DNA of 64,000 nucleotides from Escherichia coli. GTDB taxonomy: Bacteria; Pseudomonadota; Gammaproteobacteria; Enterobacterales; Enterobacteriaceae. The stretch lies in the NCBI RefSeq assembly GCF_016026235.1, contig NZ_CP065613.1. One strand, written 5' to 3'. The notes below the pieces were generated by a model. It did not search any database, was not told the origin of the DNA, and saw only the letters and a list, made by a program, of their open reading frames with translations. A program made the translations under genes and the position numbers. Positions 8,719 through 63,551 of the stretch are shown in pieces. The first letter of the stretch is position 1. Each line of letters starts with the position of its first letter.

Positions 8719-9113
8719 GCTTTATCGAAGCAAAATAAGTCAGACGATAATTTATCGATAATACTGGTCGGTTTTACATAAATCGACCAGAGAATAAGAT
8801 ATTACTGTTGATGCTTCTGCTAATTCATTATTTATATTTATAATTTCAATTTTATCTATAAAACTAACTATATAAATAAACATAAACATGCCGTTGTGTT
8901 CGCCCTTTGATTAGCAACTCTGGTTTTCTTTCTTAGCTGAACAATCTGGTTATAGCGTGCGGACTGACCGTTAATTTTCTCCATCTTACTGGATAACACA
9001 CCATGAACTGCTACTTTTAAAACACCTGAATGTCAACAGGTTAACTCGTGCCATATCGGGTGATGCTGCCAACTTACTGATTTAGTGTATGATGGTGTTT
9101 TTGAGGTGCTCCA

Positions 9114-9389
9114 GTGGCTTCTGTTTCTATCAGCTGTCCCTCCTGTTCAGCTACTGACGGGGTGGTGCGTAACGGCAAAAGCACCGCCGGACATCAGCGC
9201 TATCTCTGCTCTCACTGCCGTAAAACATGGCAACTGCAGTTCACTTACACCGCTTCTCAACCCGGTACGCACCAGAAAATCATTGATATGGCCATGAATG
9301 GCGTTGGATGCCGAGCAACTGCCCGCATTATGGGCGTTGGCCTCAACACGATTTTACGTCACTTAAAAAACTCAGGCCGCAGTCGGTAA
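9114..9389 (+). CDS. insA: IS1 InsA (transposition inhibitor / N-terminal part of InsAB' transposase)
   Basis: 91-aa [25 protein letters not shown]... Confidence 0.95.
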
Positions 9390-9811
9390 CCTCGCGCATA
9401 CAGCCGGGCAGTGACGTCATCGTCTGCGCGGAAATGGACGAACAGTGGGGCTATGTCGGGGCTAAATCGCGCCAGCGCTGGCTGTTTTACGCGTATGACA
9501 GTCTCCGGAAGACGGTTGTTGCGCACGTATTCGGTGAACGCACTATGGCGACGCTGGGGCGTCTTATGAGCCTGCTGTCACCCTTTGACGTGGTGATATG
9601 GATGACGGATGGCTGGCCGCTGTATGAATCCCGCCTGAAGGGAAAGCTGCACGTAATCAGCAAGCGATATACGCAGCGAATTGAGCGGCATAACCTGAAT
9701 CTGAGGCAGCACCTGGCACGGCTGGGACGGAAGTCGCTGTCGTTCTCAAAATCGGTGGAGCTGCATGACAAAGTCATCGGGCATTATCTGAACATAAAAC
9801 ACTATCAATAA
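9308..9811 (+). CDS. insB: IS1 insB reading frame (expressed as InsAB' transposase by -1 frameshift)
   Basis: 167-aa frame overlapping insA 3' end; AAAAAAC slippery motif near 9364. Confidence 0.9.
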
Positions 9812-9837
9812 GTTGGAGTCATTACCGGATTAGTGTG

Positions 9838-15311: not shown

Positions 15312-15377
15312 CGCTGATATGACTTTCCGTGTCAAACCGGAATCTCTAATTTTGACGATTTTCTTTTTAGGTTTAAT

Positions 15378-15562
15378 TCCCTGAGGGCGACGTAGCAGTA
15401 AATCCGACGGTGAATCACGCTGATATTCGCGGGTTGGATACCGCATTACAGAGGTCCGTCATATGAGCCTGCCACTTTCTTACGTCGCGAATCAGCTTTG
15501 TTCCGCCGTCGCCAAGCGCTAACGTGGGTTACTCTTGTACTGGGCTACGTCGCCTTCAGGGA
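15378..15562. repeat. 19-bp imperfect inverted repeat pair (18/19) in the 3' non-coding end of the IS110-family element
   Basis: TCCCTGAGGGCGACGTAGC at 15378..15396 and GCTACGTCGCCTTCAGGGA at 15544..15562. Confidence 0.7.
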
Positions 15563-15618
15563 ACTGGTTATTCTCATTTTTTATTTGTGACATTGTGGTT
15601 GTTGTGCGACAGACATTG

Positions 15619-16707
15619 CTATTCGGCCCATATCCCAGATAAAACCCGCCAGCTCACGTGCAACAGCAACAATTGTAATATTGACATTCTTTCCTTTGGC
15701 CTGAAGTTTTCGATACCTCTTACAAAGCCTGAGTTGAGCATCCCATGCTCTGTCAATGACGGGGCGGGGTAAATTTTCCTGCCTTTTTGTATTGCCGGAC
15801 TGATGCGTGCCGGATGACGGTAACTCCACGCTGCCTCGACCAATAGCTTTCTGGCATAGCTGTTTCCGGCTTTGGTAATGCTGCCCTGATGTCTGCTTCC
15901 ACCCGATGAATATTCTGATGGCGTGATACCAAACCATGACATCAGTTGTCGTGGATGTTCAAAACGGGTCAGATCACCCAGTTCAGAAATTAATCCAACC
16001 GCAGTAATAAACTGAATCCCTCGCATGGCTTGCAGCGCCTCTACTACCGGATACAGCCTCCATTCGGTAACGGCCTCCTTCAGGGCGGATTCCAGCCGTT
16101 CACATTGTGCCTGCCGGTCTTCTATTGTACGACGGTGTTCGTCAAAAGCTAATTGTCGCCAGGGACTTTCGAATGAGTATTTGCTGAGCCAGCGTCGGTG
16201 TGCAGGGCCCCAATCTGCTCGCCCGACATAATGGACCCCATGAACCAGAAGAAACGATTTCAGACGTTGCCTTGCATGCCGTAAATCATCGCGGGCAGAT
16301 GCCCATGCCCGGGCCAAATCCCGGAATGCCTCATCTTCAATGCCGGGTACGTAGACAGCAGAAAGATCTCCTGCACGCAGTGAACGCACAAGTCTGATGG
16401 CATCACGGCGATCGGTTTTAACCCGCTCCCCCGGTTTTTTCGGGATAAGTGAGGGGGCGCAGACCATGCAGTCAAAACCGGATTTCACCAGCCGACGATA
16501 AAGTCCATAACCACAGGGCCCCGCTTCATAAACGATACTGACCTGCGATGACTTTGACCTGAGACGTTTACAAAGATTCTGAATATCAGTAGGTGATGTG
16601 CCAATTTTACCCATCAGTTCAACAGGTTCTGAATTGATAGCATAAGCGACAGTAATCGATTCTTTGTGAACATCTAACCCGACGTACAATGTGTTATTGT
16701 TGTTCAT
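15619..16707 (-). CDS. IS110-family transposase (DEDD RuvC-like N-terminal domain, IS116/IS110/IS902 C-terminal domain)
   Basis: N-terminus MNNNNTLYVGLDVHKESITVAYA and C-terminal ITAVGLISELGD...GITPSEYSSGGS...KAGNSYARKLL motifs; start taken at M17 of the 378-aa track ORF. Confidence 0.8.
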   Translation of the reverse strand: MNNNNTLYVGLDVHKESITVAYAINSEPVELMGKIGTSPTDIQNLCKRLRSKSSQVSIVYEAGPCGYGLYRRLVKSGFDCMVCAPSLIPKKPGERVKTDRRDAIRLVRSLRAGDLSAVYVPGIEDEAFRDLARAWASARDDLRHARQRLKSFLLVHGVHYVGRADWGPAHRRWLSKYSFESPWRQLAFDEHRRTIEDRQAQCERLESALKEAVTEWRLYPVVEALQAMRGIQFITAVGLISELGDLTRFEHPRQLMSWFGITPSEYSSGGSRHQGSITKAGNSYARKLLVEAAWSYRHPARISPAIQKGRKIYPAPSLTEHGMLNSGFVRGIENFRPKERMSILQLLLLHVSWRVLSGIWAE

Positions 16708-16833
16708 GCTGGCCTCCGTGGTGGAAATACCGGGGTGTAGCAACAGCTCACCCATGCGGCTCTGACAACGATGTTAACCCGCGTTAAATATCCCACGTTG
16801 GCCAGCATCTGTCTCACGGAAAGTCATACTGCC

Positions 16834-46553: not shown

Positions 46554-47213
46554 TTATTCCGCCAAAGTGCGTTTTTGCTGTTCGAGATCGCGTTCAATGC
46601 CTTCACGAACATCCTGGGGGATTTTCAGCGCGTCACCCAGTGCATTCAGGTAACTGCGTTCCATAAAATGGTCAATATCAATAGCCGCGCAGCTCAGGAA
46701 ATAGATTTCCAGCGCCTCTTCTTCATTGCGGACCCCGGTAGCCAGGCGTTGTGGATCCAGCGGTTGTTCGATTGCCTGCTCAATGAGTACCCGCCCCTGC
46801 TCTTCCACGCCGGCTTCACGCAATTGCTGGTCGATTGCCGCACGTTCTTTGGCATCAATATGACCATCACTTTTAGCGGCAAAGACCAGCGCAAGGATCA
46901 AACGTTCCGTACGCTCATCCAGCGGCGTACTCTGCACGCCAAACTGCGGTTCGTCCTGATGCGCCGCGCGAATTTTATCTTTGTATTTATTCCACAGCAC
47001 CGTACCCGCTACCGCTCCGCCGCCAACCAGCAACGCGTTGGTGCCATATTTCGTAAGAAGTTTACGTGCTGATTTATTTGCGACCAGCAGCCCAGCCAGT
47101 CCGCCTAATGCGCCCGGCACTAAAAGTTTGCCCAATCCCTGATCCGCAGACGAGGAGGTAGAAGAACTGCTTTGCCCAAGCAAGGATTGCAGTTGATTTA
47201 ACCAGTTAGCCAT
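46554..47213 (-). CDS. yebE: DUF533 inner membrane protein YebE
   Basis: 219-aa ORF recognised as YebE. Confidence 0.8.
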
Positions 47214-47537: not shown

Positions 47538-47942
<405 letters not shown>

Positions 47943-47960
47943 TCAGGAGCGCAAGTTGCT

Positions 47961-48251
47961 TCAGGCCGCGTGTGAGGCATCTTCCTCTTCGGATTCAGCA
48001 CCGACGACCTGTGGGGACGGTAATTTGCCGGTTTTCAGAATGGTGCTCAGCACATCTTTTTGTTCTGCCAGCCATAGCGAAAGGGCTTCACGTTGCTCGT
48101 CTTCCATTTGCACTGGAGAATTTGTCAGCCAGGTGTCAAGCAGATCCGCCGTATCAAGCATTTTGTCATAAGCATCGGCTTCCTTTTTGCTGGTAAACGA
48201 CATTTTCTCTTCGCCCTCACGAATGACTACGTATTTAACTTCAACCGCCAT
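47961..48251 (-). CDS. yebG: SOS-inducible protein YebG
   Basis: 96-aa ORF recognised as YebG. Confidence 0.85.
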   Translation of the reverse strand: MAVEVKYVVIREGEEKMSFTSKKEADAYDKMLDTADLLDTWLTNSPVQMEDEQREALSLWLAEQKDVLSTILKTGKLPSPQVVGAESEEEDASHAA

Positions 48252-48268
48252 TTGCAGCCTCTCATAAT

Positions 48269-48288
48269 AACTGAGATTTTATACAGTA
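48269..48288. promoter_or_regulatory. LexA box upstream of yebG
   Basis: aaCTGagattttataCAGta fits CTG-N10-CAG consensus 18 bp upstream of the yebG start. Confidence 0.6.
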
Positions 48289-48384
48289 TATTTCTTTTCG
48301 GTTGAGAAATCAACACCAGCAATAAAGACACACGCAAACGTTTTCGTTTATACTGCGCGCGGAATTAATCAGGGGATATTCGTT

Positions 48385-49563
48385 ATGACGTTATTAGGCA
48401 CTGCGCTGCGTCCGGCAGCAACTCGCGTGATGTTATTAGGCTCCGGTGAACTGGGTAAAGAAGTGGCAATCGAGTGTCAGCGTCTCGGCGTAGAGGTGAT
48501 TGCCGTCGATCGCTATGCCGACGCACCAGCCATGCATGTCGCGCATCGCTCCCATGTCATTAATATGCTTGATGGTGATGCATTACGCCGTGTGGTTGAA
48601 CTGGAAAAACCACATTATATCGTGCCGGAGATCGAAGCTATTGCCACCGATATGCTGATCCAACTTGAAGAGGAAGGACTGAATGTTGTCCCCTGCGCTC
48701 GCGCAACGAAATTAACGATGAATCGCGAGGGTATCCGTCGCCTGGCGGCAGAAGAGCTGCAGCTGCCCACTTCCACTTATCGTTTTGCCGATAGCGAAAG
48801 CCTTTTCCGCGAGGCGGTTGCCGCCATTGGCTATCCCTGCATTGTAAAACCGGTGATGAGCTCTTCCGGCAAGGGGCAGACGTTTATTCGCTCTGCAGAG
48901 CAACTTGCTCAGGCATGGGAATACGCTCAGCAAGGCGGTCGCGCCGGAGCGGGCCGCGTAATTGTTGAAGGCGTCGTTAAGTTTGACTTCGAAATTACCC
49001 TGCTAACCGTCAGCGCGGTGGATGGCGTCCATTTCTGTGCACCAGTAGGTCATCGCCAGGAAGATGGCGACTACCGTGAATCCTGGCAACCACAGCAAAT
49101 GAGCCCGCTTGCCCTTGAACGTGCGCAGGAGATTGCCCGTAAAGTGGTGCTGGCACTGGGCGGTTATGGTCTGTTTGGTGTCGAGCTGTTTGTCTGTGGT
49201 GATGAGGTGATTTTCAGTGAGGTCTCCCCTCGTCCACATGATACCGGGATGGTGACGTTAATTTCTCAAGATCTCTCAGAGTTTGCCCTGCATGTACGTG
49301 CCTTCCTTGGACTTCCGGTTGGCGGGATCCGTCAGTATGGTCCTGCAGCTTCTGCCGTTATTCTGCCACAACTGACCAGTCAGAATGTCACGTTTGATAA
49401 TGTGCAGAATGCCGTAGGCGCAGATTTGCAGATTCGTTTATTTGGTAAGCCGGAAATTGATGGCAGCCGTCGTCTGGGGGTGGCACTGGCTACTGCAGAG
49501 AGTGTTGTTGACGCCATTGAACGCGCGAAGCACGCCGCCGGACAGGTAAAAGTACAGGGTTAA
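48385..49563 (+). CDS. purT: formate-dependent phosphoribosylglycinamide formyltransferase 2
   Basis: 392-aa ATP-grasp ORF recognised as PurT. Confidence 0.9.
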
Positions 49564-63531: not shown

Positions 63532-63551
63532 TGCTGGATAGATATCCAGCG
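63532..63551. promoter_or_regulatory. LexA box upstream of ruvAB
   Basis: tgCTGgatagatatcCAGcg fits CTG-N10-CAG about 50 bp upstream of ruvA. Confidence 0.65.

Follow-up and report, generated by a model that had tools for sequence, protein, structure and literature searches.

A natural base change at a LexA contact residue of the yebG SOS box in a small Escherichia coli clade

The SOS box of yebG is textbook knowledge, and confirming it in a further E. coli genome adds nothing new. The question raised by the copy analyzed here, within a stretch of 64,000 nucleotides (the window), is whether a site that fits the LexA consensus is also the operator known from the reference strain. The earlier note, made from the sequence, had called an SOS box at 48269-48288 from a CTG-N10-CAG match directly upstream of minus-strand yebG. 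Both observations held. CTG lies at 48271-48273 and CAG at 48284-48286, in inverted orientation around a 10-nt spacer, as in the gammaproteobacterial LexA box consensus TACTG(TA)5CAGTA, and 17 nt separate the end of the box from the ATG (48251) on the minus strand. The identity of the site as the yebG SOS box also stood, by its published K-12 location and by the 19 of 20 bases that it shares with the published operator, but the site is not the canonical operator: at 48274 on the plus strand the window has A in place of the T of K-12. The comparison with the published operator that had been proposed thus exposed a deviation, at LexA contact residue 15, which had gone unnoticed. Consensus calls of the CTG-N10-CAG type can mask functionally relevant departures from a reference operator, and this locus is a case for caution. 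The novelty lies in a natural allele that alters a LexA contact residue and has become fixed in a small E. coli clade.

The plus strand of the box reads AACTGAGATTTTATACAGTA and the minus strand, on which yebG lies, reads TACTGTATAAAATCTCAGTT. The features of the locus are as follows.

48269-48288, minus strand: LexA operator (SOS box) of yebG; 19 of 20 bases shared with the published box, 14.7 bits, orthologous boxes in 66 of 66 species
47961-48251, minus strand: yebG coding sequence, the operator-controlled gene, 96 amino acids plus stop; from the open reading frame list, PF07130 and the RefSeq annotation of the K-12 orthologue
48285-48290, minus strand: predicted -10 hexamer of yebG, TATACT; promoter scan
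48308-48313, minus strand: predicted -35 hexamer of yebG, TTGATT, with a 17-nt spacer to the -10; promoter scan
48258-48263, minus strand: Shine-Dalgarno sequence of yebG, GAGAGG; from the sequence, with GAGGCTGC kept in orthologues
48274, no strand assigned: clade SNP, A for K-12 T on the plus strand; alignment with DH5alpha

Identity of the box and layout of the yebG promoter

The reading frame downstream of the box matches Pfam PF07130 along the whole profile (E=4e-34, profile positions 1-74 of 74). Its coding DNA shows no differences from K-12, its homologues bear the name 'DNA damage-inducible protein YebG', and the gene order yebE-yebF-yebG-purT-eda is that of K-12. Table 4 of PMC3009722 gives the K-12 LexA motif of yebG as TATACTGTATAAAATCACAGTTATT (core TACTGTATAAAATCACAGTT, printed as TA-TACTGTATAAAATCACAGTT-ATT), and PMC2585105 gives the LexA site as CTGTATAAAATCACAG. 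In locus, strand, distance to the ATG and overlap with the -10 hexamer the window box agrees with the K-12 operator TACTGTATAAAATCACAGTT, and the 250 bp to either side show no differences. LexA binding and induction by damage have been reported for the K-12 yebG allele and for Salmonella yebG (PMC8072944 for Salmonella); the Salmonella box also lies 17 bp from the ATG, and the gene is induced 41-fold by nalidixic acid (PMC8072944).

The first four bases of the box are the last four of the predicted -10 hexamer, and the predicted transcription start (48280-48277) falls within the box. Overlapping the -10 and covering the start, the box is placed where it would occlude the promoter; the predicted promoter has the layout classically seen where a repressor acts by occlusion. 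The promoter-proximal half-site is the perfect consensus TACTGTAT, with the canonical T at residue 6. Under the standard LexA/RecA mechanism, which governs the SOS box and is reviewed in PMC6590174, a LexA dimer would occupy the 20-bp imperfect palindrome, one monomer on each CTG/CAG half-site, and would block RNA polymerase because the box overlaps the -10 and the predicted start. DNA damage would then act through RecA* and LexA self-cleavage to empty the operator and allow yebG to be transcribed.

We examined conservation in one genome per species with a YebG alignment, 66 loci in all, from genera that include Escherichia, Citrobacter, Salmonella, Klebsiella, Raoultella, Kosakonia, Phytobacter, Enterobacter, Franconibacter and Superficieibacter and from one Pseudidiomarina. 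A LexA box of at least 16.9 bits lies upstream of yebG in every one of them, 13-19 nt from the ATG at 65 loci and 57 nt from it in Pseudidiomarina. All the boxes share CTGTA at positions 3-7 and CAG at positions 16-18. The TA that precedes the box and completes the -10 hexamer shows conservation of 90% or more, and a TTGA-type -35 hexamer is found at the same distance in the Escherichia, Citrobacter, Salmonella and Klebsiella orthologues and in most genera.

For scoring we used a symmetrized LexA matrix built from 16 E. coli boxes of Table 4 in PMC3009722, with yebG and ruvA left out. The bare CTG-N10-CAG pattern is weak evidence by itself, occurring 27 times in the window against 12.9 expected. 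At 14.7 bits the yebG box ranks second among all 20-mers in the 64 kb, and about 8.5% of simulated 64-kb sequences (first-order Markov) reach this score somewhere; taken alone and window-wide, its score is of marginal significance. The case for the box therefore rests on position and orthology, that is, on the 19 of 20 bases shared with K-12 and on the boxes at the same place in all 66 species. The matrix scan suggested by the earlier note did not return a poor score: depending on the scoring, the box has 13.9-14.7 bits and a Berg-von Hippel heterology index of 8.2-11.2, inside the range of verified boxes. Leave-one-out indices of 18 published boxes extend to 12.8 (unsymmetrized) and 17.0 (symmetrized), and the verified E. 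coli boxes of ftsK, dinB, polB and dinG score equal to or lower than the window box. Together, position, orthology and layout identify the site as the LexA operator of the yebG promoter, orthologous to the K-12 operator and already known as a feature.

The top match to the matrix in the window is the ruvAB LexA box at 63532-63551 (19.3 bits, ruvA being left out of the matrix), with ruvA on the minus strand; it reads CGCTGGATATCTATCCAGCA, the published ruvA box. The next-best matches after yebG, at 35247-35266 and 47188-47207, score about 11.6 bits, the level of random sequence, and the latter lies inside the yebE coding sequence; both are probably chance. A search of the window for the consensus 20-mer with up to three mismatches gave no match, a test that is too strict here, as the yebG box itself has five mismatches to the perfect palindrome. 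Scanning the yebG-purT intergenic region with the matrix revealed no second, compensating LexA box.

A rare allele at operator residue 15

Across 47900-48420 the window agrees with E. coli DH5alpha at 520 of 521 positions. The sole difference, at 48274, lies inside the box. It is also the only difference from K-12 between 47721 and 48891. On the yebG strand it changes operator residue 15 from A to T, immediately 5' of CAG, so that ACAG becomes TCAG in the promoter-distal half-site. Over its 64 kb the window has 604 differences from DH5alpha (about 99% identity) and three extra insertions. One SNP in the yebG region is therefore ordinary; its location and its rarity are notable.

All 34 half-sites of 17 reference boxes have A or C at residue 15 or, on the mirror strand, T or G at its mirror, residue 6. 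This is the only LexA-box feature we tested that the window box lacks, through its T at residue 15. Of the 66 orthologous boxes, 64 have A at this residue and 2 have C; as none has T, the window allele is absent from all the species representatives, and the window box (13.9 bits) scores below every orthologue (minimum 16.9). By the matrix, the K-12 allele has 20.5-21.3 bits against 13.9-14.7 for the window allele, a cost of about 6.6 bits for the SNP, and the heterology index rises by 3.0-3.9, from 5.2 to 8.2 (unsymmetrized) or from 7.3 to 11.2 (symmetrized).

Predicted yebG operator strength varies elsewhere within E. coli. In one other contig (L004, 2885-2904) residue 1 of the yebG box is changed from T to C, with a score of 18.2 bits, and the box of the GTDB E. 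coli representative, TACTGTATAAAAATACAGTT, scores 26.4 bits against 20.5 for K-12.

To follow the allele through E. coli we used several queries. A 91-nt query around the box, which is blind to genomes that combine the A allele with a second nearby SNP, had a perfect match in 0 of 5,425 complete E. coli genomes, all of which fell below the 99% identity band. With a pattern that leaves 48274 open, 11 of 11 metagenome contigs carried T and none carried A. The marker proteins PurT, YebE and PtrB were too common for lineage tracing (about 51,000, 2,200 and 14,000 index blocks, respectively). They retrieved one contig with the A allele (GCA_014155105.1), 100% identical to the window across 6.2 kb, together with 23 other contigs, all with the K-12 allele. 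Contigs retrieved with RsmF end before the yebG box, probably at an IS1 copy. The A allele was found again in GCA_001907535.1 (with 20 further similar places) and in GCA_012807895.1, both retrieved through a clade-specific open reading frame that fuses CopD to YebY and adjoins the IS1 copy; the fusion, confined to about 35 index blocks, is a marker of the clade with the operator SNP. The A allele is thus real and is carried by three independent assemblies of a small, IS1-marked E. coli clade.

IS1-sized insertions and the roughly 99% identity to K-12 had raised the suspicion that this clade is Shigella, an origin that we rejected. The exact RsmF, RlmA and YebT sequences are all labeled Escherichia coli, and with its lineage-specific proteins so labeled we therefore regard the clade as an uncommon one of E. 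coli.

That the site is a chance CTG-N10-CAG match, or the SNP an error of sequencing or assembly, deserves practically no credence. The 27 pattern matches in the window and the proportion of random sequences that reach the score would favor chance, but the published operator to which the site is orthologous has experimental support, and the site is found in the same place throughout the 66 species. An error would have to recur in GCA_014155105.1, GCA_001907535.1 and GCA_012807895.1, which are independent NCBI assemblies. Orthology, conservation and the three assemblies refute both explanations.

For the SNP itself, drift of a neutral or slightly deleterious change is the simplest explanation. 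Five differences private to the clade fall within the surrounding 3.2 kb, about 1.6 per kb; for a genome of about 4.7 Mb with about 40 SOS boxes (count from PMC5999292), this comes to about one private SNP in some box. As drift alone yields about one such hit, no selection need be invoked.

Predicted effects on LexA binding and on the yebG leader

The consequences of changes at residue 15 have been studied systematically. Culyba et al. (2018) varied residues 14 and 15 of a consensus operator through all 16 combinations and obtained LexA dissociation half-lives of 1.9 to 492 s (PMC5999292). Dissociation was slow and binding stronger with A or C at residue 15, and dissociation was fast with G or T (PMC5999292). 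Peak promoter activity in vivo followed the half-life in vitro (r = -0.99) and separated A/C from T/G operators (PMC5999292). The T/G operators formed a distinct high-activity group, and residue 15 was more discriminating than residue 14 (PMC5999292). In the crystal structure of LexA on DNA, Asn41 reads A15 by way of a water bridge (contact information from PMC5999292, PMC4139847). The change in the window is of the kind made in that series (PMC5999292), in which T or G at residue 15 led to fast dissociation and higher peak activity. The operators of the series, however, were engineered consensus sites in recA promoter reporters, whereas the window operator is natural, belongs to yebG, and has C at residue 14 and a non-consensus spacer.

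By this reasoning, the change from A to T most likely removes the water-bridged Asn41 contact, which would speed LexA dissociation and weaken repression without abolishing it. In the clade we would expect basal yebG expression to be higher, peak promoter activity after damage to be higher, and SOS control to be retained. We consider it probable that the window operator still responds to LexA and is weaker than the K-12 allele, with LexA occupancy and the size of the effect predicted from the operator sequence. Retained function is plausible because the proximal half-site TACTGTAT is perfect, because the score is within the verified range, and because LexA sites in the literature join a canonical CTGT/ACAG half to a half-site of the CTGA type (TCAG when read on the opposite strand), as the window box does. 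These sites are yjiW/symE (CTGATGATATATACAG), ybfE (CTGATTAAAAACCCAG) and dinJ (CTGAATAAATATACAG), which differ from the window box in their genes, spacers and promoter positions. As they also break the rule, A or C at residue 15 is a preference and not an absolute requirement, and adding the three sites to the matrix would shrink the computed penalty of the SNP. The allele could serve as a natural test, at the native locus, of the published rule that operator residue 15 sets the LexA off-rate and SOS timing.

A natural one-base difference in the yebG box is also known from Salmonella Typhimurium, where the heterology index is 7.03 in ATCC 14028 and 4.98 in ST4/74 (PMC8072944). That SNP is a G-to-C change in another species with its effect measured by allele swap (PMC8072944), whereas the effect of the window allele is predicted. 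The Salmonella SNP shifted the uninduced ON subpopulation the other way from what the heterology index predicts (PMC8072944), and by analogy the sign of any effect of the window SNP on basal expression is not guaranteed.

In the main rival reading, the residue-15 mutation would cut LexA affinity so far that the operator is dead in the clade and yebG is expressed constitutively, much as in an operator-constitutive mutant. The absence of T at this residue from all 34 reference half-sites and all 66 orthologous boxes, a score lower than that of every orthologue, and the separate high-activity group formed by T/G operators in the work of Culyba et al. (PMC5999292) would all fit such a loss. We nevertheless think it unlikely, for the proximal half-site is consensus and both CTG/CAG motifs and their 10-nt spacing are intact. 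The verified ftsK, dinB, polB and dinG boxes score no higher, the same CTGA-type half-site occurs at yjiW, ybfE and dinJ, and all 16 residue-14/15 variants still formed measurable LexA complexes, down to the half-life of 1.9 s (PMC5999292). A weakened, LexA-responsive operator remains our preferred reading.

The SNP also lies at predicted position +3 to +7 or so of the yebG mRNA. On the mRNA strand it creates UCUCA (48276-48272), complementary to UGAGA (48264-48260), which overlaps the Shine-Dalgarno sequence (48263-48258). When both alleles were folded, the K-12 leader had a predicted minimum free energy of -5.8 kcal/mol and the window leader one of -10.1 kcal/mol, and the mean unpaired probability of the Shine-Dalgarno sequence fell from 0.55-0.57 to 0.03-0.10. 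The prediction was unchanged for every assumed start from 48280 to 48276, the start itself being inferred from the position of the -10. If real, the hairpin would, speculatively, lower yebG translation and partly offset the weaker repression. It might even be that the SNP was selected for, or is buffered, through such occlusion of the Shine-Dalgarno sequence and reduced translation and not through LexA, a reading that we hold to be very improbable. The modeled shifts in folding energy and accessibility, robust across assumed starts, would support it, but they are purely computational, the stem has 5 bp with two G-C pairs, and the start is inferred. Drift is enough to account for the SNP, given five clade-private SNPs in 3.2 kb, and no recurrence was seen, the allele being confined to one clade with 0 of 11 metagenome contigs and 0 of 5,425 complete genomes with a perfect match. 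Somewhat less improbable, though still quite unlikely, is a dual effect in which weaker LexA binding (transcription higher or earlier) and a hairpin that masks the Shine-Dalgarno sequence (translation lower) would together retune SOS control of yebG. If true, this would be a natural operator and leader mutation, fixed in the wild, that retunes control rather than merely damaging it.

Neighboring features of the window

We rejected regulation of the divergent purT gene by the yebG box: it is located 37 bp upstream of the near edge of the predicted purT -35, and a separate PurR-type operator belongs to purT. That sequence, ACGCAAACGTTTTCGT (48332-48347, plus strand), resembles a PurR operator. 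It shares the yebG-purT intergenic region with the yebG box and is flanked by the predicted purT -35 AAGACA (48325-48330) and -10 TATACT (48349-48354). At position 48332 the E. coli contigs compared differ, 25 having A and 3 having G.

Three insertions distinguish the window from the reference. One, of 764 bp relative to K-12 (40004-40767), is about the size of IS1, and at the equivalent position GCA_001907535.1 has a gene with PF03400 (IS1 transposase). It is adjoined by a 381-aa open reading frame (40955-42097, minus strand), the fusion of CopD (PF05425) to YebY (PF10709). Another, of 767 bp relative to K-12 (9059-9825), has the same terminal sequence as the 40004-40767 insertion and is presumably another IS1 copy. 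The third, of 1,517 bp relative to DH5alpha (15316-16832), was found between the pdeD and yoaE stop codons; its ends form inverted repeats (ATGACTTTCCGTG and CACGGAAAGTCAT), and it includes a 378-aa open reading frame that matches the IS110-family transposase domains PF01548 and PF02371.
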